From a virus (lineage: Monodnaviria; Loebvirae; Hofneiviricota; Faserviricetes; Tubulavirales; Inoviridae): a stretch of 8,848 nt of DNA. A program made the translations under genes and the position numbers. The stretch lies in the IMG/VR virus record IMGVR_UViG_2579779034_000001. The stretch is one strand, 5' to 3'. Below, one piece after another: positions 1-8,848 of this stretch. Below the pieces are notes generated by a model that saw nothing but the letters and a program-made list of their open reading frames with translations, did no database searches and was not told the DNA's origin. Position 1 is the stretch's first letter; every line of letters starts with the position of its first letter.

Positions 1-32
1 ATTGGTGCGCATAATGTGCGACTCGTTATGTT
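1..32 (+). other. dif-like XerC/XerD recombination site at the left junction (hybrid attL-like)
   Basis: Positions 5-15 GGTGCGCATAA match the E. coli dif XerC arm 11/11 (dif recalled as GGTGCGCATAA-TGTATA-TTATGTTAAAT). Central 16-21 TGTGCG matches 3/6. The XerD-arm position 22-32 is degenerate (about 5/11). Confidence 0.7.
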
Positions 33-36
33 GAAA

Positions 37-69
37 AGGCCGCTGCGAAAATCGCCTCCGCAGCGGCCT
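37..69 (-). terminator. GC-rich perfect hairpin; possible terminator for the 103..1206 gene and inner stem of a folded attP
   Basis: Stem 37-47 (AGGCCGCTGCG) pairs perfectly with 59-69 (CGCAGCGGCCT), with an 11-nt loop. On the minus strand it lies just downstream of the stop of the 103..1206 gene and is followed by a short T run (plus-strand AAAA at 34-37). Confidence 0.45.
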
Positions 70-75
70 CTTTAG

Positions 76-100
76 CATAACGTCATTGTGCGAACCAATT
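76..100 (-). other. Inverted, degenerate dif-like site (attP2-like)
   Basis: Reverse complement of 76-100 is AATTGGTTCGCACAATGACGTTATG, which resembles site 1 (ATTGGTGCGCATAATGTGCGACTCGTTATG). Positions 1-16 can pair with 84-99 (14/16 Watson-Crick) and 25-30 with 76-81 (6/6). Confidence 0.45.
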
Positions 101-102
101 AA

Positions 103-1206
103 TTATTTTTTGTCTAATATAGCACTGCTTATATTAGAATTCTTAGCTGTAAAAAGCATATCTGCTTCTTGGTATATTTCACCTGAGCCACCACTAAAGT
201 TAAACTCGATGTTTAGGTCATTATAAGTAATGCTTGGAGAGTATTTTCTGCTTATTATAATATAGCCAACTGAATTTGCAGGAACCTCAACCCTTTCTTT
301 CGGTTTTTCCATAAGATATCCATTATCATTAACAAATTCAACATTGTATTTTTTATACACTCTTATTTCTTCATCATCTCTTTTCTTTTCATCTTTATAA
401 TCAAATGTATCAACATGTTCGGAAATATATTGAAAGTTTTTATATATTCTCCATCCGCCTGAAACCTTCAGTACTTCTGATGTTTTGTTAATTATTCTAA
501 ATTTGAACATTATTTGATTTTTTTCTATCTTGGCATCTATTATTTCAATAGGGTATTCATTCGCTCTTAGATTGTAATTTTCAGTTATCAGTCCATTACC
601 TATAGGATTAATCGAAAGCCCAGAATTGTACATATTGTTATAAATCATGTAGTTATATGCTTTCAAGGGGCCCGCGAGAGGGTTGTCTTCTGTTTGGATA
701 CTGATGACCATATAACTGAAAAATGCAGCAAAAATAGCACCACCTAAGATAAAAGAACCTGCACTCGGTGGCACTGAGTCTTTTGAAAGGTATGTTTTCC
801 CGTCAGTATCTTCTGATCTTATGGAAGGCATGGTACTTTTATCAAGAATTCTTGTTCCTTCAATCAAGAGCACCATGGATATTTTTTTATTTGCTAATAT
901 TCTATCTATCTTTACAAAAGAACCTTCGGTAGTTGCATCATGATCACTTGCAATTACAGTACAAGACATACCGTTTGGGACTTTTATTTCTACATTTTTT
1001 TCTTTATCCTTACCTTTATTAAATACTGATGCATTTATTACTATTGCATTGTCAGATATTGAGGTTTTACTTAAGGAGTTCCAGCAGGATAAGTAAAGTT
1101 GTCTTTTCCTAAATATAGATAAAAACTTATTGAGGACTAATGCCACAAAAAAAGAAGTAACTACTTTCAATGTATCAGTAATCAAGTCCGGCATCTTTTT
1201 TCTCAT
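103..1206 (-). CDS. Hypothetical membrane protein, 367 aa, two predicted TM helices; AT-rich phage cargo gene of unknown function
   Basis: A 367-codon ORF in DNA of roughly 32% GC (a sampled 60-nt stretch gave 19 G+C), where stop codons are frequent by chance. Hydrophobic segments at about residues 12-32 and 148-170. No catalytic motif recognised. Weak Shine-Dalgarno. Confidence 0.75.
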   Translation of the reverse strand: MRKKMPDLITDTLKVVTSFFVALVLNKFLSIFRKRQLYLSCWNSLSKTSISDNAIVINASVFNKGKDKEKNVEIKVPNGMSCTVIASDHDATTEGSFVKIDRILANKKISMVLLIEGTRILDKSTMPSIRSEDTDGKTYLSKDSVPPSAGSFILGGAIFAAFFSYMVISIQTEDNPLAGPLKAYNYMIYNNMYNSGLSINPIGNGLITENYNLRANEYPIEIIDAKIEKNQIMFKFRIINKTSEVLKVSGGWRIYKNFQYISEHVDTFDYKDEKKRDDEEIRVYKKYNVEFVNDNGYLMEKPKERVEVPANSVGYIIISRKYSPSITYNDLNIEFNFSGGSGEIYQEADMLFTAKNSNISSAILDKK

Positions 1207-1273
1207 TTTACTTAAAATCCAGTGTTTTAACTGATCAAAGATGGTCAGATAAAATGCAAAAATTTAGTATTTG

Positions 1274-1304
1274 AATATTACCCTAGTTAACCTAGGGTAA
1301 TATT
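1274..1304. promoter_or_regulatory. Perfect 13-bp inverted repeat with 5-bp spacer (operator-like palindrome) upstream of the 367-aa cargo gene
   Basis: Arm 1274-1286 AATATTACCCTAG and arm 1292-1304 CTAGGGTAATATT are exact reverse complements; spacer TTAAC. No adjacent T tract on either strand, so an operator is more likely than a terminator. Confidence 0.5.
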
Positions 1305-1310
1305 ATATCA
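1302..1310 (-). promoter_or_regulatory. Candidate extended -10 promoter element (TGATATAAT) for the 103..1206 gene
   Basis: Minus-strand sequence TGATATAAT at plus 1302-1310 fits TGnTATAAT. Its TGA is the stop codon of the upstream 139-aa gene. The palindrome 1274-1304 covers the predicted +1 region. Confidence 0.35.
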
Positions 1311-1727
1311 ATAATATGAATTTCTTCGGTGCCACCAATAAAGTAGACCGTATCCGACGATAAGAATCCCAAAAAATATCAGAGACATTCCCCAGCCAGT
1401 TCCGTACCACGAAACCATATCATCGAAAACCAACCCACCCGTTTCACGTACTCCGGCAGCTTCCTTAAGAATTGGTTTGAATACCGGAATCAGAAGGGCG
1501 ATCGCCAGTGGGGCACCCCAGCGAACAAGACCTGTTTCCATTTTGATCCCGAAAAAGATCCCCGCACCGACAACAAGCAACCAGACTATCAGGCCAGGCG
1601 CAGTTTCCAGTGCTGTTTGCCATTCAACATCGAAAGTTTTCATTAGCCAGGCAACAACTGCCAGACAGAAAGCAAATACGCCCACGACAACCAGTTCAAC
1701 GCCGCTTGTTTCGTTATTTCTACTCAT
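1308..1727 (-). CDS. Hypothetical small integral membrane protein, 139 aa, about four TM helices
   Basis: ORF with four hydrophobic stretches. Good RBS on the minus strand (AAGGA about 8 nt before the ATG). GC about 52% in a sampled stretch, clearly higher than neighbours. The antisense ORF 1477..1767 is shorter and judged spurious. Confidence 0.65.
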   Translation of the reverse strand: MSRNNETSGVELVVVGVFAFCLAVVAWLMKTFDVEWQTALETAPGLIVWLLVVGAGIFFGIKMETGLVRWGAPLAIALLIPVFKPILKEAAGVRETGGLVFDDMVSWYGTGWGMSLIFFGILIVGYGLLYWWHRRNSYY

Positions 1728-1769
1728 CCTTTTGATCCTTTTTCATTGTTCAAAATTCGCACAATAAAG

Positions 1770-1798
1770 AACGTGCAGTGTTGGTAATACTGCACGTT
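1770..1798 (-). terminator. Hairpin downstream of the 60-aa regulator gene (minus-strand terminator or attenuator)
   Basis: Perfect 10-bp stem 1770-1779 AACGTGCAGT with 1789-1798 ACTGCACGTT and a 9-nt loop. On the minus strand it is followed by CTTTATT and lies 18 nt after the stop at 1816. Confidence 0.45.
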
Positions 1799-1815
1799 TG
1801 TACCATTCGTGGTAC

Positions 1816-1998
1816 TTAATCCTTTTGTTTGGCAGACATGAGATCTTCTGCTGCATCTTTAGAGTAGTTATCAATCAGATAACCTAAAATCTCTGTCCAT
1901 GTAATTGTTTTTCCTAGTTTTACACTGGCATTTATAGCCAGTCGTTCTAGTTTCATTTTTCTTTCTTCCGTCACGTTATAAGTCGTGCGCTTTGCCAT
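1816..1998 (-). CDS. Small putative DNA-binding regulator (60 aa), divergently transcribed from gII
   Basis: 60-aa basic N-terminus (MAKRTTYNVTEERKMKLERLA). Position and orientation mirror the repressor-replication arrangement of integrative filamentous phages such as rstR-rstA in CTXphi. Function is inferred from context only. Confidence 0.5.
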   Translation of the reverse strand: MAKRTTYNVTEERKMKLERLAINASVKLGKTITWTEILGYLIDNYSKDAAEDLMSAKQKD

Positions 1999-2040
1999 TT
2001 TTTACGCTCGTTCAATGCAATATTTGAAGTGAGTATACAT

Positions 2041-2125
2041 GCTCATGAACTCATATCATCCAAGCCTCTTGAACTCACTAGCTCACTGGTGTAATGTTTA
2101 AACACTAATGAACTACTGAACTCAT
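2041..2125. promoter_or_regulatory. Divergent control region with four TGAACT(C/A)(A/C)(T/C) iterons; candidate gII promoter, operator and/or plus-strand origin
   Basis: TGAACTCAT at 2046-2054 and 2117-2125, TGAACTCAC at 2070-2078, TGAACTACT at 2109-2117, plus related GCTCACT and GCTCATG. Possible sigma70 promoter toward gII: -35 TTGAAC 2069-2074, 17-bp spacer, -10 TAATGT 2092-2097. Possible -10 TATACT on the minus strand (plus 2032-2037) for the regulator. Confidence 0.45.
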
Positions 2126-2167
2126 GTGTTAGTAAGTCGTCATTTTTGCAATTTTGAGGATTTATTC

Positions 2168-3220
2168 GTGATCGATTGGCTTACCGGGATTTTCCCTTGC
2201 ACACACAAACCGCTTCCGGCGGGGAGTGTTGTCAGCGTTGATGCTGACGGTGCAATTGAGTGGGAAACCGTTAAGCGACTGACTGTTCGCGGCTCGCATG
2301 AAGCAACGATGAAAGTACGATCGATAGGATCTAATGGCGAAGGTAAAGCGACACATTTGTACATTGATGGTAATCCTTCCAAGTTTCTGCAGGGGCATTC
2401 TGTTGTTGGGTCGGATGATATACAAGGGCTCATGTTGACGGTCTATGCCAGGATTTTATCCTTATTGAATATTCCTCATGATTTAGCGTCTTATAAAGCC
2501 GTTATGGCAGGTCAGTATAAAATTTCACGTGTTGACATTAATTACATGTATTCATTATCTACGCTGGAAAATGTCAGATCATGGCTTTATGCCGCCGAAT
2601 TTAAAGCTAAAACACGCCATGGTCGCGCATGTGGGAAAGGCGGTACAGTTTATTTAGGTAAAAACTCCCGTCGATGGAGTCTGAAATTTTATTCAAAATA
2701 TGATGAACACGTTTCTGGTAAAAAAGGGCACCAGATAGCCGAAGAGTTTGTACGAGCCGGGTTACTGGACTGGACGAAAGATAAATTACGTATTGAATTA
2801 ACATTAAGAACAACTGAGCTTATTGATTTAAATTTAACGCTTGGCGCTAACTGGAATATGAAAACACCACGTCAATTATTCTCTGAATATGTAGGGAGAA
2901 TAGAAATGAATCAGAATGCTATTTTAAGTGATGAAAAAATAACGAAACTGCCAAGAAAAATACAGTCAACTTATTTACTTTGGAAACAAGGGGCTAACAT
3001 GAAAGAAATGTTACCTCATAACACTTTTTATCGCCATAGAAGAGAATTGCTTTCGTTCGGTATCGATATTAATTTCTATTGTGATTCACCAGACTCTAAT
3101 AACGTTGTTCCGCTAATAAGAACGCTGGAAGCCAAGCCAGCGGAAATCCCCTTATGGATTTATGAGAAAGGTTTTATTTTCGATTACAACCGTATTTCGC
3201 ACGCCAGTAGCTGGCATTAA
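2168..3220 (+). CDS. gII: Replication initiation protein, pII-like rolling-circle nickase
   Basis: GTG start at 2168 preceded by RBS TGAGGA (2155-2160). N-terminus (M)IDWLTGIFPC aligns with M13 pII MIDMLVLRLPF as recalled. Internal matches PSKFLQGHSVVGSDD vs PAKVLQGHNVFGTTD and NNVVPLIR vs NNVVPLVR. The ORF track's longer start at 2126 overlaps the iterons and is less likely. Confidence 0.85.
   Translation: MIDWLTGIFPCTHKPLPAGSVVSVDADGAIEWETVKRLTVRGSHEATMKVRSIGSNGEGKATHLYIDGNPSKFLQGHSVVGSDDIQGLMLTVYARILSLLNIPHDLASYKAVMAGQYKISRVDINYMYSLSTLENVRSWLYAAEFKAKTRHGRACGKGGTVYLGKNSRRWSLKFYSKYDEHVSGKKGHQIAEEFVRAGLLDWTKDKLRIELTLRTTELIDLNLTLGANWNMKTPRQLFSEYVGRIEMNQNAILSDEKITKLPRKIQSTYLLWKQGANMKEMLPHNTFYRHRRELLSFGIDINFYCDSPDSNNVVPLIRTLEAKPAEIPLWIYEKGFIFDYNRISHASSWH
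2906..3220 (+). CDS. gX: Putative nested in-frame pX analog (C-terminal 104 aa of pII)
   Basis: In-frame ATG at 2906 (Met261 of the 2126 frame) preceded by GGGAGA. In Ff phages pX is produced from an internal start of gII. Inferred by analogy only. Confidence 0.35.
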   Translation: MNQNAILSDEKITKLPRKIQSTYLLWKQGANMKEMLPHNTFYRHRRELLSFGIDINFYCDSPDSNNVVPLIRTLEAKPAEIPLWIYEKGFIFDYNRISHASSWH

Positions 3221-3231
3221 AGGAAAGTAAT

Positions 3232-3549
3232 ATGTCTAATTATGGTCTTTTCGTTAAGGGTAAAATGTTGGGAGCCCGCCAACGTAATAAAGTTAATGGT
3301 CAGGGCTATTATAATGAAATTGGTATTGGCCTTGAAATACCTGATGGTTTTGGTGGTACAAAGCAGGATCAAATTATTATTCGAGTTTCTCAGGCTCTCG
3401 TTAACGCAGGTCTAATGAACCAGGCGAATGCTTTCATTGGGAAATTAGTTCAAATTCCTGTCTATGTCCGTGCGTGGTCAATGGAGGGTAGGGAAGGTGT
3501 AACTTATAATGTTTCTTCCGATGGTGGCATCGCAGAGATCAAAGGTTAA
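3232..3549 (+). CDS. gV: Putative ssDNA-binding protein (pV-like)
   Basis: 105-aa ORF immediately after gII with RBS AGGAAAG. The position is conserved in Ff phages; similarity to M13 pV is weak (an R/K-rich segment followed by GxYxNE). Confidence 0.6.
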   Translation: MSNYGLFVKGKMLGARQRNKVNGQGYYNEIGIGLEIPDGFGGTKQDQIIIRVSQALVNAGLMNQANAFIGKLVQIPVYVRAWSMEGREGVTYNVSSDGGIAEIKG

Positions 3550-3551
3550 AT

Positions 3552-3638
3552 ATGGACGATGTTATTCAAATTTTGATAGCGTCTGGCATCGTTATTTCTT
3601 TTGGCCTCGGCGCGATTACTGCGGGGGTCTTTCGTTAA
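3552..3638 (+). CDS. gVII: Minor coat protein pVII-like (28 aa)
   Basis: MDDVIQILIASGIVISFGLGAITAGVFR resembles the M13 pVII C-terminal part (IQISVVLCFALGIIAGGQR). Stop overlaps the next start (TAATG). Confidence 0.7.
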   Translation: MDDVIQILIASGIVISFGLGAITAGVFR

Positions 3639-3733
3639 TGTATATCGTTTATTTCTTCGGGGCTTATACCTTTGGTTTTGCCCTTTTCTATGCGGTCGGT
3701 TCATTTAAATCATTTTCTGACCGATTAATGTAA
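3638..3733 (+). CDS. gIX: Minor coat protein pIX-like (31 aa)
   Basis: MYIVYFFGAYTFGFALFYAVGSFKSFSDRLM resembles M13 pIX (MSVLVYSFASFVLGWCLRSGITYFTRLMETSS). ATG overlaps the gVII stop. The 3509..3733 track ORF is the same frame extended upstream and is rejected. Confidence 0.72.
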   Translation: MYIVYFFGAYTFGFALFYAVGSFKSFSDRLM

Positions 3734-3752
3734 CCTTAATGGAGTTATTCCT

Positions 3753-3995
3753 ATGAAAATTCTGTCTACTGTTAAATATAAAGTTGCTCTGGCTTCAACT
3801 GCGCTTTTTATTTCTGCAAGTTCTTTTGCGGCTGAAGGCGCTACAGGTGGTACTGATTATGCAGGCCAGGCAATGGATGCTTTGTTGACTCAGGCAAATG
3901 ATCTCATTGGTAAAGTATGGCCTGTTGTTGTGGCTGTGGTTGGCGCTGGGCTTGCCATTCGTATTTTCAAAAAATTCTCTTCAAAAGCGGTTTGA
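3753..3995 (+). CDS. gVIII: Major coat protein pVIII precursor (80 aa, signal peptide plus mature coat)
   Basis: Signal peptide ending SFA followed by AEG, an amphipathic and hydrophobic core, and a basic C-terminus KKFSSKAV, closely paralleling M13 pVIII (SFA-AEGDDP ... KLFKKFTSKAS). Confidence 0.95.
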
Positions 3996-4004
3996 ATTTC
4001 ACTC

Positions 4005-4028
4005 AGGGGCACTCGTTGCCCCTTTATT
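4005..4028 (+). terminator. Rho-independent terminator after gVIII
   Basis: Stem 4005-4011 AGGGGCA pairs with 4017-4023 TGCCCCT, 5-nt loop, followed by TTATT. Ff phages have a terminator at this position. Confidence 0.55.
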
Positions 4029-4041
4029 AAAGCGGGTTACT

Positions 4042-5358
4042 ATGAAAAGGAAAATATTAATTCTTTCCGCTGTCCTCATTTCTCCTTTTTCACATGCTGA
4101 GTCATGGGAAAGCATTACTAAATCCACTTATCAAAGTTCTGCCTACGCTGAAAGTAAGCAAATAACCAATCAGGATGGCTCTAAGACAACGGTTTACTAT
4201 ATTGATGCTGCTATGCAGGCCTCCGCTTGTCAGGGTGCTAAATCCAGTGCTCAGAGTGTATTTACTCGGGTTAAACCAACTTATGAGGGTATCTGGCCTG
4301 ATTCTGAATTCCGTCTTGTTTTTACTGGTGATTGTACTTACAGCGATTCACCAGGGCAGAAGGATAAATATTGGTCTTTAACGGCTTATATTGTTGGTAA
4401 TATTCAGCGTTCTGTTCCTGATGAAAAACCTACTGACCCGACACCAGAAGAAATTTGTGAAGCGAAGCCGCCAGAAGAAGGTGTATTTAATAATGTTGAT
4501 TCATATGATGGTGGTCGCTATATCTACTATAACGGCTGTGAATATGAGGCTACTGGTGTCATTGTTTGTCAGGGTGATGGTACTGTTTGCGCTGCAACAT
4601 GGAAGCCTACAGGTGCTGTAGCTGACCCCTCTGATAAACCCTCAACCCCCCAAAATGGCGGTGGTGAGTCCGGTGGTGGTGAGTCCGGTGGTGGTGAGTC
4701 CGGTGGTGGTGAGTCCGGTGGTGGTGAGTCCGGTGGTGGTGAGTCTGGCGGTGGTGAGTCTGGCGGCGGTAGTTCTGGCGGTAGTTCTGGCGGTAGTTCT
4801 GGCGGTAGTTCTGGCGGTGGCTCTAGTGGTTCCAGTCTTTCTAAAGGTGATATTCAGTCTGCGATCGAAGGTGCTTCACCCAAAATAGCCAGCGATATTC
4901 ATGATAAATTAACGGAGAAAGACACTTCATCAGATGATAAAAAAAATGCCGATGAACAAACCAGGAATAATATAAATCGTCTTGACGATTCCATTAACAA
5001 TCTTACGCGGGGGGCTGGCCGTTTTGCTGACCCTTCAGGTGGTGATTCTCGTTATGGAAAGGGCGACTCTGAATTAGATGGCGCTTCTACTTTAGCTGAT
5101 TCTGAATTGGGAATTGAAAAGGATTCTCACGGTGCTTTATGGGAAGCATTTTTAAATAAAGGTGCTATGCTGCCTAATTTGCCCAATGGTAACGGCTGCT
5201 CTGATTTTATTATTTTCCCCGGAGAGGTTTATCAGATTGATATTGGTTGCGATAAATTACTGACTATTAAAGATGTTCTTTCATGGGTTTTTTATTGCCT
5301 TACTTTCTGGTATGTCTTTACTTCTTTAACTTCATTGCTTCGCAAAGGGGGTGAGTGA
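4042..5358 (+). CDS. gIII: Minor coat / adsorption protein pIII (438 aa)
   Basis: Signal peptide [19 protein letters not shown]. Cys-rich segment [26 protein letters not shown] resembles M13 N1 (YEGCLWNATGVVVCTGDETQCYGTW). Gly/Ser-rich linker. C-terminus IDIGCDKL...[17 protein letters not shown] resembles M13 (IDCDKINLFRGV...FMYVFSTFANILRNKES). First ATG after the gVIII terminator. Confidence 0.9.
4657..4836 (+). repeat. In-frame tandem repeats encoding the pIII Gly-rich linker (seven 15-bp GGGES units, then 12- and 15-bp GGSS/GGGSS units)
   Basis: Seven 15-bp units GG(C/T)GGTGGTGAGTC(C/T) from 4657 to 4761, then GGCGGCGGTAGTTCT, three GGCGGTAGTTCT units (4777-4812), and a degenerate tail to 4836. 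Confidence 0.9.
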
Positions 5359-5699
5359 TGCCTTTATTATTAGGTATTCCTGCATTGTTGCGTTTTCTTA
5401 TTGGTCTTGTTCCTTTGTTTATTGGCTATGTGGCGAGTTTTTTAGCTCGACTTGCTACCAGAACAGGATTAATCGCCTTTGCATTGGTCGCATTAATTAC
5501 AACAACTGTTACGCTTTTAATGCAGTACCTTGCTGAGGTCATGTATAACGGTTTACCTGCTGATTTCTCCCATTTAATGGCGTCTGTATTGCCTGACCAT
5601 TTTCAGGCGTGTGTTAACGTTATTATGGTTACTCGTATCAGTGTTTTTGTTTTCGATTTAAAACAAAAATTTCTTGATTATGCAAACAGGGTGATTTAA
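5358..5699 (+). CDS. gVI: Minor coat protein pVI (113 aa)
   Basis: [24 protein letters not shown] closely matches the M13 pVI N-terminus (MPVLLGIPLLLRFLGF) and FDLKQK matches FDVKQK. ATG overlaps the gIII stop (TGATG). Strong RBS AAGGGGGTGAG. Confidence 0.92.
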   Translation: MPLLLGIPALLRFLIGLVPLFIGYVASFLARLATRTGLIAFALVALITTTVTLLMQYLAEVMYNGLPADFSHLMASVLPDHFQACVNVIMVTRISVFVFDLKQKFLDYANRVI

Positions 5700-6794
5700 A
5701 TGGCGGTTTATGTAGTAACAGGCAAATTAGGCTCAGGCAAGACACTTGTTAGTGTTTCCAGAATACAGGAAAGACTTGCTAAGGGTTGTCCTGTTGCCAC
5801 TAATCTTGATCTTAAATTGCATAATATGCCTATGGTTGGGCGTTATGCGAAAAAAACGCGCGTTATTCGCATTCCTGACAAGCCTTCATTAAATGATTTA
5901 CTTGCTATTGGTACTGGGAATACATCTTACGATGAATCCCGTAATGGCCTCCTTGTACTTGATGAATGTGGTACTTGGTTTAATTCCCGCTCATGGGGTG
6001 ATAAAGACAGACAACCTGTTATTGACTGGTTTTTACATGCCAGAAAATTAGGCTGGGATATTATATTTTTGATTCAGGATATTTCGATAATGGATAAGCA
6101 AGCTCGTCTGGCGCTTGCTGAGCATGTTGTTTATTGTCGCCGTTCAGATAAATTAAACATTCCTTTTGTTGGCTCCATTATGAATTTGGTTTCAGGGGCG
6201 AGATTTTCTTTACCAAAGGTACACTTTGGCATTGTCAAATATGGTGATAATGTTAATTCAATCACTGTTGATAAATGGATATATACAGGAAAATCTCTTT
6301 ATTCTGCTTACAATACCAAACAAGCGTTCACAGATAATTATCCTCATGGCGCATTTTCGCTTTTGCCACCATTTATCACGCACGGTCAATTTTCTGTTCA
6401 CAGAGGATTTAATTATTATATGCGCCTCACTAAAATTTATTTTCGCAAATCGAACCGTCTTATATTAATGCTTTCTTTTTTGGCGCTGGGGCTTGCGTTT
6501 GGTTTCTGGCTCCAGTCTGGAAAGAATGTTGATGAAATCTCAGCTATTAAATCTGCTTATGCTGAACAGGCGAGGGCGGTAACGCCTGATTCGTCCAGTG
6601 ACTTACCCCGACTTTCTATTAATTCTTTTTCACAACTTGGCTTTGACGTTTCCGTTACGTTTGTTGATGCAAAAGGTATGAAATATCAGTATTTTGATTT
6701 GATTAAAGATGGTTATTCCGTTGATATTAAAGATGCCTGTCGTGTTGTTATTAGAAAAGGCCGTTATTTACAGACTGTTACCTGTCAGGAGTAA
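5700..6794 (+). CDS. gI: Assembly ATPase pI (Zot-like), 364 aa
   Basis: Walker A GKLGSGKT and Walker B LLVLDECG. Long near-identical stretches to M13 pI as recalled (MAVYVVTGKLGSGKTLVSV, RQPVIDWFLHARKLGWDIIFLIQD, LAEHVVYCRR). C-terminal TM segment. Confidence 0.95.
   Translation: MAVYVVTGKLGSGKTLVSVSRIQERLAKGCPVATNLDLKLHNMPMVGRYAKKTRVIRIPDKPSLNDLLAIGTGNTSYDESRNGLLVLDECGTWFNSRSWGDKDRQPVIDWFLHARKLGWDIIFLIQDISIMDKQARLALAEHVVYCRRSDKLNIPFVGSIMNLVSGARFSLPKVHFGIVKYGDNVNSITVDKWIYTGKSLYSAYNTKQAFTDNYPHGAFSLLPPFITHGQFSVHRGFNYYMRLTKIYFRKSNRLILMLSFLALGLAFGFWLQSGKNVDEISAIKSAYAEQARAVTPDSSSDLPRLSINSFSQLGFDVSVTFVDAKGMKYQYFDLIKDGYSVDIKDACRVVIRKGRYLQTVTCQE
6420..6794 (+). CDS. gXI: Putative nested pXI (in-frame internal start of gI)
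   Basis: In-frame ATG at 6420 (Met241 of pI), the same position as the M13 pXI start (MKLTKIYLKK vs MRLTKIYFRK here), followed by the TM segment. Confidence 0.45.
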   Translation: MRLTKIYFRKSNRLILMLSFLALGLAFGFWLQSGKNVDEISAIKSAYAEQARAVTPDSSSDLPRLSINSFSQLGFDVSVTFVDAKGMKYQYFDLIKDGYSVDIKDACRVVIRKGRYLQTVTCQE

Positions 6795-6801
6795 TATTAT
6801 T

Positions 6802-8067
6802 ATGCGCTCTGTTATTGTTGCTTTTTTATTTGCCTGTTCATTCTGCGTTTCTGCTGAAACTGTTAATTTAAATAATTCATCTGTTCGCTCATTTGTTCAG
6901 TGGTATTCTTCAAAAACTGGCAAGCCTGTTATTGTTAATCCTGATATTAAAGGAAACGTAACCGTATTTAATGCTGATGTTAATCCAACAAATATTGATG
7001 ATTTCTTTAAGTCTGTTCTGAATGCTAACGGTTTTGTCATGCTTTCTGGCAATCCTGCGGTAGTCTCTTTGCCGTCTAAATTACCTTCACAGATGGTTTC
7101 GGATTCCGATGATTCTGATAACCAGTCTTATGATACTTTTCCTTCTGAGCCATCTTACCAGCCAGTACCTGTAGCGCTTACGGTCAGAAATTTTAAGCTG
7201 ACAAAAGTTAGATCGTCCGATGTTCAGCAACTGATTAAAATTTATCTTGATTCTAATGGTGGTGGTAATGTCGTGGATTATCCAGGCAATAACTCGCTGA
7301 TTGTTTCTGCGCCTGACGAGCTGCTGCCGGTTCTGTCCGATTTTATCAATTCTGTGGATGTTGCCCGCGATCAGGTTCTCATTCAGTCGCTGATGTTTGA
7401 AACCAGCTTGTCTGATGGCGTTGATTTATCGTTTGCGGCAGGTTCTGCATCCGGTCATAAGGTTGCGGGGGGCTTTAATACTTCTGCACTGGGTAGCGCT
7501 CTTTCTACGGCGGGCGGTTCTTTTGGTATTTTTGATGGTAACGTGTTGGCGCTGTCTCTGCGTGCTGTCCAGAGTAATTCACGCTCTAAGGTGATTTCAA
7601 CGCCGCGTATTCTTACTCAGTCTGGTCAGACTGGTTACATTTCCGTAGGTAAGAATGTGCCGTTTATCACCGGAAAGGTAACGGGCGAATCTGCCGGGGT
7701 AAATAATCCGTTTCAGACTATCGAGCGTCATGATGTTGGTGTTTCTCTCAAGGTAACGCCTGTTGTCATGGGTAACGGGCAACTAGTTCTGACTATCGAC
7801 ACTCGTGCTGATTCAATCAGCAATGATGATCAGGCATCCGATATTATTACTAATCAGCGCCAGATTCAGACGACAGTCCAGATTAAGGATGGTCAGACGT
7901 TGTTATTGGGGGGGCTTATCGATTCATCGTTCAGCAATGCCGAGCGTTCAGTTCCAGTTATAAGTAAAATTCCTCTTATAGGCTGGATTTTCAGTAGCAA
8001 GGCAGACAGCAATGAACAGCGTATTATGTATATTTTGCTTACAGCACATATCATTCGTCCACTTTGA
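6802..8067 (+). CDS. gIV: Secretin pIV (outer-membrane export channel), 421 aa
   Basis: Signal peptide MRSVIVAFLFACSFCVSA. Strong secretin-domain similarity to M13 pIV (for example SVGKNVPFITGKVTGESAGVNNPFQTIER vs SVGQNVPFITGRVTGESANVNNPFQTIER, DGQTLLLGGL, SKIPLIG). RBS AGGAG. The upstream ATG at 6709 would overlap gI and lacks a signal peptide. Confidence 0.95.
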   Translation: MRSVIVAFLFACSFCVSAETVNLNNSSVRSFVQWYSSKTGKPVIVNPDIKGNVTVFNADVNPTNIDDFFKSVLNANGFVMLSGNPAVVSLPSKLPSQMVSDSDDSDNQSYDTFPSEPSYQPVPVALTVRNFKLTKVRSSDVQQLIKIYLDSNGGGNVVDYPGNNSLIVSAPDELLPVLSDFINSVDVARDQVLIQSLMFETSLSDGVDLSFAAGSASGHKVAGGFNTSALGSALSTAGGSFGIFDGNVLALSLRAVQSNSRSKVISTPRILTQSGQTGYISVGKNVPFITGKVTGESAGVNNPFQTIERHDVGVSLKVTPVVMGNGQLVLTIDTRADSISNDDQASDIITNQRQIQTTVQIKDGQTLLLGGLIDSSFSNAERSVPVISKIPLIGWIFSSKADSNEQRIMYILLTAHIIRPL

Positions 8068-8110
8068 TGGATAGCGGGTAGGTGCGTGAGCCCTGCTCGC
8101 TATCCATCAA
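8064..8110 (+). other. Large hairpin immediately after gIV; candidate packaging signal and/or terminator
   Basis: Perfect 13-bp inverted repeat 8064-8076 TTGATGGATAGCG with 8098-8110 CGCTATCCATCAA, 21-nt loop, overlapping the gIV stop. The Ff packaging signal hairpin lies at this position. No T tract follows. Confidence 0.45.
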
Positions 8111-8136
8111 ATGGACATTATTGATTGGGGTAACTA

Positions 8137-8445
8137 ATGGATTCTTATGGGATTTTATCTGCTCTGGCAGAACGAACGATTACAGCGGAAGAAGCAAAAA
8201 CAATGACACTTGCAGCCAGAAGTTCTTCGGCTCAGGTAAATGAAGCATCACTTGCTCTGTTACTGATTGATAATACTCTGGATGCGATCAAAGCAGCTGC
8301 CAGTGAAGGGAAAGGATACACTTTACTTCCTTCTTATGAGATTTCTGTAAAAGCCATTGATTTAGCAGAAGAATTTTTAAGGAAACAATGCGGCTATGTT
8401 ATTGATAACCAGAATGGCGTAAGGACGGTCTATTGGTTTATATGA
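8137..8445 (+). CDS. Hypothetical protein, 102 aa (accessory)
   Basis: ORF with an Ala/Leu-rich, probably helical N-terminal part; RBS-like GGGGT upstream; no recognisable motif. Confidence 0.55.
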   Translation: MDSYGILSALAERTITAEEAKTMTLAARSSSAQVNEASLALLLIDNTLDAIKAAASEGKGYTLLPSYEISVKAIDLAEEFLRKQCGYVIDNQNGVRTVYWFI

Positions 8446-8562
8446 TAACCCCGGACAATGACAAAACTTGCTTTTGTTAGTGTCAGGGGTTGGCCAAGCC
8501 GAACAATTCTGTTTTTTTAGCGTTATTGCTGATTCGGCGCGGCAGCATTACGAGGAGATAAA

Positions 8563-8796
8563 ATGCAATTTTTCACATCCAGCGATACTGTAATGTTATG
8601 TGCGAAGACCTGCGATCGCTGTGGTCGCCATGCGAAGACGGTGGTAGATGACATTGAGTTCAATGAGTTTCTGTCTGTTAATCACTTAGCTGGATACGGT
8701 TCAATTTTTGGTGACAGTAATCGCTTAAAACTGGATTTATGCCAACATTGCCTGAAAGACGTCCTGGGCCAGTGGATTACGGTCTGTGACCAATGA
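8563..8796 (+). CDS. Hypothetical Cys-rich putative zinc-ribbon protein, 77 aa (accessory)
   Basis: Strong RBS GAGGAG 5 nt upstream of the ATG. Cys pairs CDRC (residues 17-20) and CQHC (60-63) plus C13 and C75, compatible with a Cys4 zinc-binding fold. Function unknown. Confidence 0.62.
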   Translation: MQFFTSSDTVMLCAKTCDRCGRHAKTVVDDIEFNEFLSVNHLAGYGSIFGDSNRLKLDLCQHCLKDVLGQWITVCDQ

Positions 8797-8831
8797 CGGC
8801 ACCGGTAACGCCAGTTCCCGCCATCCTTACC

Positions 8832-8848
8832 ATTGGTGCGCATAATGT
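8832..8848 (+). other. Start of the right-junction dif site (XerC arm), truncated by the window end
   Basis: ATTGGTGCGCATAATGT is identical to 1-17. GGTGCGCATAA-TGT is the beginning of the canonical dif core. Confidence 0.7.

Follow-up and report, generated by a model that had tools for sequence, protein, structure and literature searches.

Positions 1-100 of the stretch of DNA analyzed here (8,848 nucleotides in full; hereafter, the window) very probably constitute the CTX-type attP(+) of a temperate filamentous phage, which would be used as folded plus-strand single-stranded DNA (ssDNA). The window holds one prophage unit of 8,831 bp from a filamentous E. coli phage, bounded by the 17-bp direct repeat ATTGGTGCGCATAATGT and integrated at dif. 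The region folds into a forked hairpin carrying two inverted dif-like sites, the fold is conserved among relatives, and the element is found in tandem arrays at dif.

Fold and conservation of the hairpin

Upon folding of 1-100 as ssDNA, a check proposed in an earlier note on this DNA, a single forked hairpin was obtained as the minimum-energy structure (-30.9 kcal/mol compared to -13.6 +/- 2.2 for shuffles; z = -7.7), with 0 of 200 shuffles as stable, and this hairpin ranks first among the 23 inverted repeats of the window. The fold consists of the pairs 1-6/94-99, 8-16/84-92, 24-31/75-82, 34-36/71-73, and 37-47/59-69. Recounting reproduced the pairing given in the earlier note for 1-16 with 84-99 (14/16), for 25-30 with 76-81 (6/6), and for the perfect 11-bp stem 37-47/59-69 (11/11). 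The asymmetric internal loop described there also is present, but its limits, placed at 17-24 opposite 82-83, had to be moved, since an additional C24-G82 pair leaves 17-23 as a bulge opposite T83.

The left half of the region reads ATT-GGTGCGCATAA-TGTGCGACTCG-TTATGTTGAAA-AGGCCGCTGCG, followed by an 11-nt loop, and the right half reads CGCAGCGGCCT-CTTTAGCATAA-CGTCA-TTGTGCGAACC-AATT. As the earlier note had recognized, two inverted dif-like sites surround the GC-rich stem. Site 1 (4-36, plus strand) comprises a predicted XerC-binding arm, GGTGCGCATAA (4-14), which is perfect as had been claimed (11/11 against the E. coli dif XerC arm), an 11-nt central region, TGTGCGACTCG (15-25), which starts with TGT and is bulged at 17-23, and a predicted XerD-binding arm, TTATGTTGAAA (26-36), with 9/11 matches to the dif XerD arm TTATGTTAAAT. 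Site 2 lies on the minus strand (96-70) and is composed of a XerC-like arm, GGTTCGCACAA (86-96, 9/11 against the dif XerC arm), a 5-nt central region, TGACG (81-85), and a XerD-like arm, TTATGCTAAAG (70-80, 9/11 against the dif XerD arm). Between the two sites, the 11-bp GC-rich stem with its 11-nt loop (37-69) nucleates the fold. The XerC arms face each other (4-14 against 86-96) with nine Watson-Crick pairs, one T.G and one G.A, the bulge is flanked by TG/CA and CG/CG pairs, and the XerD arms pair next, continuing into the GC stem. The XerD arm of site 1 had been judged poor because it was scored at the canonical 6-bp spacing; at 26-36, displaced by the 11-nt central region, it matches at nine of 11 positions. 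The suggestion that a poor XerD arm fits XerC-only exchange falls as well, as XerC-only catalysis in CTXphi stems from the hairpin substrate, and XerD still is required there though XerC alone catalyzes (PMC3089051, PMC4246890).

Exact matches to the XerC arm GGTGCGCATAA occur in the window only at 4 and 8835. Besides these, a XerC-like arm adjoined by a XerD-like arm was found only at 96-70, in inverted orientation. The second exact match reflects a repeat overlooked in the earlier note: 1-17, the left copy of the 17-bp core, recurs exactly at 8832-8848 (plus strand). The core is common to attP, attL, attR and the host dif and contains the crossover, and in the chromosome its right copy continues either to dif (attR) or to the next tandem phage copy.

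Gene II relatives retrieved from genome and viral collections provided 29 distinct hairpin-containing segments, all of which (29/29) fold alike. Among 14 distinct variants, changes are confined to the bulge, the loop and the host-derived left arm. T15, G16, T17 and the inner arm bases are invariant in these variants while 18-23 vary, the bulge after TGT reading GCGACTCG, ACGACTCG, CAACGCG, GTGACTCG or GCCACACG, and the GC stem is kept while the loop bases vary. Four pairs with double changes were detected among the 14, which at 94% identity provide weak covariation statistics, and three of the four come from one Brenneria sequence for which the alignment is possibly shifted. Both XerC arms read GGTTCGCATAA in the Brenneria-type phage, matching each other, and at a related locus (L040) the arms match the host dif, GGTTCGCATAA-TGTATA-TTATGTTAAAT. 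More informative on covariation than the close variants are the diverged (type-B) hairpins of Klebsiella spallanzanii, Providencia rettgeri and one further locus (L007). These have unrelated inner stems and keep the order XerC arm, long center, XerD arm, inner stem(s), XerD', short center, XerC', with two compensatory pairs between the Klebsiella and Providencia hairpins. For 14 of 17 variants, the folded plus strand is more stable than the minus strand by 2-6 kcal/mol, a small difference that weakly supports strand-specific folding.

Hairpins on the plus strand of Ff phages serve as the minus-strand origin and packaging signal, and the structure at 1-100 might likewise be mainly a bidirectional intrinsic terminator serving the convergent cargo gene and the rightward genes, a minus-strand origin or a packaging signal, with the dif-like arms a recombination scar. 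We regard this as very unlikely. The stem at 37-69 is followed on the minus strand by TTTTC and lies directly past the stop of a 367-aa gene, and IncF/ColV plasmids keep the stem and site 2, without site 1, beside an AbiJ-like gene, which would be consistent with a terminator. A terminator, however, needs only 37-69, which leaves unexplained the two in-register dif-like sites and the invariant TGT, as well as the conservation of the sites around unrelated inner stems. Our terminator scan, which accepts loops up to 8 nt, did not flag 37-69, where the loop is 11 nt; a search of the whole window against Rfam gave no match at gathering thresholds. For packaging, another hairpin is better placed. 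It begins at the gene IV stop codon (8063-8111) and has 20-nt arms that are 90% complementary and a 9-nt loop. The packaging signal of Ff phages sits at that place, right after gene IV, and we consider 8063-8111 a better candidate for this signal than the hairpin at 1-100. Terminator or packaging roles and attP function are not exclusive, and, judging from the TTTTC, the GC stem probably also terminates the convergent minus-strand cargo gene that stops at 103.

Integration at dif

An attP reading of 1-100 implies junctions at dif, and comparison of the empty locus in K-12 with occupied sites, another check named in the earlier note, placed them exactly there. The empty site of K-12 MG1655 reads ...tttatATTGGTGCGCATAATGTATATTATGTTAAAT, with the same left flank as the prophage of E. 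coli AZ184 followed by ATT plus dif. The 17-bp core matches this empty site through the TGT that opens the dif center, and the sequence 3' of dif in K-12 is the sequence found 3' of attR in an E. coli contig (L003) that is labeled a 'Candidatus Nanosynbacter' MAG, evidently a binning error. AZ184 carries the element at the chromosomal dif beside hipBA (next to hipA) in two tandem copies. The junction between the copies corresponds to window positions 8800-8848 joined to 1-100, such that a second hairpin follows copy 1. A single copy with the same attL and an intact dif at attR is present in UM146. At the end of the AZ184 array, as in UM146, the right core continues with ATATTATGTTAAAT to give the intact dif, and the regenerated attR dif, GGTGCGCATAATGTATATTATGTTAAAT, was observed in UM146, AZ184, L003 and other loci.

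Where one tandem copy meets the next, the sequence is exactly that of attP in AZ184, in Y. pestis and at a further locus (L014). For Y. pestis, the attL arm on the side of the chromosome is GGTGCACATAA and the arm at the phage-phage junction is GGTGCGCATAA; since the two differ, the crossover lies to the right of the differing base. The sequence thus places it where it would be expected for XerC cleavage at the border between arm and center. E. coli TUM14759 carries a 9,565-bp circular episome with one attP copy, in which one loop base is different and whose context, ...CATCCTTACC-ATTGGTGCGCATAATGT-GCGACTCG..., is that predicted from circularizing the window.

Several observations were made on the same loci. 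The TUM14759 episome (NZ_CP128883.1; L053) has a CUS-1/Ypfphi backbone, was deposited as an 'untypable plasmid', keeps the same first ~20 bases after attP as the window, and probably is the phage replicative form. In AZ184, ISEcp1 is inserted in gene IV of the second tandem copy (L050 3210-4472), leaving only the first copy intact, and the same ISEcp1 insertion in gene IV is found in strain 1434. L003 contains, in the segment 4853-8300, a further dif-like junction, AGTGCGCATAA-TGTGTT-GAACATGTTAA, 3.4 kb left of the phage attL, and it appears that another element, different from the phage and also integrated at dif, lies there in tandem with it; the last ~45 nt of this other element resemble the chromosome upstream of dif (z about 4.5). 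For the phage itself, capture of host sequence, that is, a right end resembling the chromosome upstream of dif, was considered and rejected upon global alignment (z = 1.1 versus shuffles).

A recombinase gene close to the site, which the earlier note had named as grounds for abandoning the attP reading, was sought among the ORFs of the element and in the flanking hipBA, SDR and fimA genes, and none was found. Searches of all ORFs against Pfam, PHROGs, NCBIfam and PADLOC likewise gave no integrase or transposase, with three small or unknown ORFs not fully excludable.

Based on these features and on the analogy with CTXphi, from which the ssDNA substrate, XerC-only catalysis and irreversibility are carried over, integration would proceed as follows. 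Rolling-circle replication by the gene II protein would yield circular plus-strand ssDNA, the plus strand being taken as the packaged strand because all Ff-type genes lie on it. In this strand, the sites at 4-36 and 96-70 would anneal around the 11-bp GC stem, making both the XerC arm and the XerD arm double-stranded, with a mostly unpaired center, including the 7-nt bulge 17-23, between them. Host XerC and XerD would bind this folded decoy and synapse it with the chromosomal dif, and XerC would cut both the site 1 strand and the top strand of dif after GGTGCGCATAA and exchange the two. The attP center starts with TGT, as does the dif center TGTATA, making pairing possible next to the XerC cut, and this shared TGT would stabilize the swapped strands. 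The resulting pseudo-Holliday junction would be resolved by replication. The left product is predicted to combine the dif XerC arm with the phage central region and hairpin, and the right product to combine the phage XerC arm with the dif central region and XerD arm, restoring dif; the left and right junctions observed are those predicted. Once double-stranded, the sites have spacers of 11 and 5 bp, such that neither should be a Xer substrate and integration is expected to be irreversible. New virions would then arise by replication across tandem copies, and a poor duplex substrate fits the tandem arrays seen.

The attL and attR junctions would be accounted for equally well if duplex site 1 were recombined with XerC acting first, and VGJ phages also enter dif through XerC (PMC4246890). 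In a VGJphi-type route, duplex site 1 of the double-stranded replicative form alone would be recombined with dif by XerC, with site 2 and the hairpin idle. This route is improbable given the spacing of the arms, which are 11 bp apart in duplex site 1 compared to 6 bp in dif, and given that a VGJ-type attP is about 29 bp in all; the single duplex attP that characterizes this type, ~29 bp long with a ~7-bp center between canonical arms, is lacking in the window. It also leaves without a role the inverted site 2, which is kept with matching arms in every relative examined, including those with diverged hairpins. Two observations count against use of the folded plus strand, which we nevertheless favor: the helical spacing of the arms along the bottom strand is 5 nt, where dif has 6 and CTXphi attP2 has 7, and upon laboratory transduction into E. 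coli, Ypfphi remained mostly extrachromosomal (PMC4266046).

Phage identity and relation to known Xer-exploiting elements

The Ff-type genes of the window all lie on the plus strand in the Ff order II, V, VIII, III, VI, I, IV. Gene II (2126-3220, plus strand) encodes a rolling-circle initiator with Phage_CRI and G2P_X_C domains (E = 9e-70). In gene III, a pilus-binding domain precedes the TolA-binding domain, gene I belongs to the Zot family, and gene IV encodes a secretin. Three ORFs adjoining the hairpin run opposite to these genes. The pII and pV proteins are 86% and 94% identical in amino acid sequence to those of Ypfphi, gII/gV are 80% identical at the nucleotide level, and the attP hairpin is 95-96% identical to that of Ypfphi; pIV shows 27% amino acid identity, and pVIII, pIII, pVI and pI show no detectable similarity. 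The body of the phage instead is IKe/I2-2-like (pI 66% and pIII 53-55% identical). The pII protein is of the Ypfphi type and not of the IKe/Ff type, and a search of the window for the Ff gene II nick site TTCTTTAATAGTGGACTC with up to three mismatches found none.

CUS-1 was considered as the identity of the phage and was rejected, the structural genes being unrelated to those of Ypfphi. In a member of the CUS-1phi/Ypfphi lineage, about 99% nucleotide identity would be expected over the ~7-kb core that CUS-1 and Ypfphi have in common, and the window shares only the hairpin and gII/gV; the genuine CUS-1/Ypfphi backbone is a separate one, present in 85 E. coli genomes. The window shares an IKe/I2-2-like core, Ff gene order, Ypfphi-like gII/gV and tandem integration at dif with the UPphi viruses (UPphi901; Shapiro and Putonti, 2020, PMC7307601), and the published PCR primers for UPphi901 match its gene III. 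By sequence, the window thus is a UPphi virus, with an IKe-like body and a replication and attachment module of the Ypfphi/CUS-1 type. The combination of Ff-like structural genes with dif integration, which the earlier note had regarded as a notable one, was therefore already published in 2020, as UPphi (PMC7307601). From their position, the ORFs at 8137-8445 and 8563-8796 would correspond to the two conserved novel genes after gene IV described in the UPphi paper. Like UPphi901, the window has three reverse ORFs after dif; it differs from UPphi901 in the length of the unit (8,831 bp compared to 7,560 bp) and in its attL-side cargo, the 367-aa gene.

The prophage of UM146 is 99% identical in nucleotide sequence over 1306-8848, and its gene III match is partial, with 205 of 438 amino acids aligned at 98.5%. 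Gene III of the window (3898-5358) also differs by a 15-nt indel from the AZ184 copy. Most g3p variation among UPphi phages is in the glycine-rich linker (PMC7307601). A zinc-ribbon pattern, CxxC...CxxC, is present in the 77-aa ORF at 8563-8796, which lies shortly before the right core repeat, and some genome annotations under the match include a 'mobilome CxxCx(11)CxxC protein'. On the minus strand, 1308-1727 is a conserved 139-aa ORF (phrog_4174) with several long hydrophobic stretches and probably encodes a membrane protein.

The layout of 1-100 is that of attP(+) of the Vibrio cholerae phage CTXphi, for which the forked hairpin was described by Val et al., 2005 (as reviewed in PMC3089051, PMC4246890). 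CTXphi attP1 is AGTGCGTATTA-TGTGGCGCGGCA-TTATGTTGAGG, with a 12-nt center, and attP2 is AATGCGTATTA-TACGCCA-TTATGTTACGG, with a 7-nt center (PMC3089051). The likeness proposed in the earlier note was borne out: the plus strand carries two dif-like sites in inverted orientation, of which site 1 has a long center and site 2 a short one (11 and 5 nt compared to 12 and 7 nt in CTXphi). The XerD arm starts with TTATGTTGA, and its first nine bases are those of the attP1 XerD arm TTATGTTGAGG. As in CTXphi, TGT beside the XerC cleavage point matches the host dif, no phage recombinase is encoded, divergently transcribed regulator and cargo genes adjoin attP, dif is regenerated at the prophage 3' end, and tandem arrays are formed. 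Unlike in CTXphi, where the sites are ~90 nt apart in a structure of ~150 nt, the sites here are 33 nt apart in a ~100-nt hairpin, the host, E. coli, has one dif only, the body of the phage resembles that of IKe, and the evidence is in silico.

CUS-1phi (E. coli O18:K1:H7) and Ypfphi (Yersinia pestis) have been classed as CTX-type, with an attP(+) and features for direct ssDNA integration (PMC4246890, PMC3089051, PMC4266046). The phage of the window resembles them in tandem integration at dif and in the variable cargo on the attL side and differs from them in its regulator (60 aa versus 148 aa), its cargo genes and its structural and assembly genes. The UPphi paper refers to 'a copy of the dif site' and describes no inverted second site, hairpin or ssDNA integration (PMC7307601). 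[quoted passage not shown]

The cargo slot beside the hairpin

The gene that abuts the hairpin (103-1206, minus strand) is a variable cargo gene encoding a 367-aa protein with two hydrophobic helices, which probably span the membrane, and two beta-sandwich domains. The protein had no match in Pfam, NCBIfam or PADLOC and belongs to phrog_17621, for which no function is annotated. Only 21 homolog clusters were found, mostly from Enterobacterales, and of 5,426 E. coli genomes, 17 cover at least 80% of the accessory region that includes the gene (100-2000). A homolog from Providencia rettgeri (36% identical) is positioned in the same way, at the end of another inovirus and beside a type-B forked hairpin.

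The slot that separates the hairpin from the conserved regulators (window 103-1727, minus strand) is hypervariable among relatives, similar to the hypervariable regions of Vibrio inoviruses (PMC12715192). In the relatives, the slots (L010 90-824, L016 240-1352, L029 1768-2839, L014 1500-1796) hold defense-type genes together with several unknowns; Fic/DOC, Pycsar-type TIR, a DpnII/MboI-like nuclease with DUF6953, and a DUF7014 fragment were detected. The hairpin itself is carried by UPphi (IKe-like) and CUS-1/Ypfphi backbones and by a Providencia phage with a Phage_GPA replicase. In addition, window positions 27-97, which extend from the site 1 XerD arm through the GC stem and site 2, are found at ~94% identity at some 459 places in E. 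coli plasmids. One example is pECOS88 (NC_011747.1 120260-120330; L051 4001-4071), where an IS200C remnant lies just to the left and an AbiJ-like gene (AbiJ_NTD4 plus DUF7014) comes next on the minus strand. The plasmid copies look like a captured fragment of phage attP plus cargo. Given these observations, we tentatively suggest that the hairpin and slot might form a portable lysogeny and cargo cassette that moves across unrelated inovirus backbones and onto plasmids, and that the 367-aa protein might be an undescribed anti-phage or superinfection-exclusion protein. Were this so, the phage would deliver a 367-aa defense protein to dif.

What novelty is left open concerns this slot and not the hairpin, which, at the nucleotide level, is a near-identical copy of the described Ypfphi hairpin. 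The mechanism is not a new one, the design having been worked out for CTXphi in 2005 and noted then for CUS-1 and Ypfphi. The only new point is that the UPphi phages can be placed among the Xer-exploiting elements of CTX type; this assignment is well supported in silico and bears on phages reported in more than 200 genomes of E. coli, Salmonella, Klebsiella, Citrobacter and Yersinia. For these phages, it predicts that integration would be irreversible, that virions would be produced from tandem arrays only, and that host range would be determined by the three bases adjoining the XerC cleavage point. It also shows that inoviruses exchange the attachment module separately from their virion genes.
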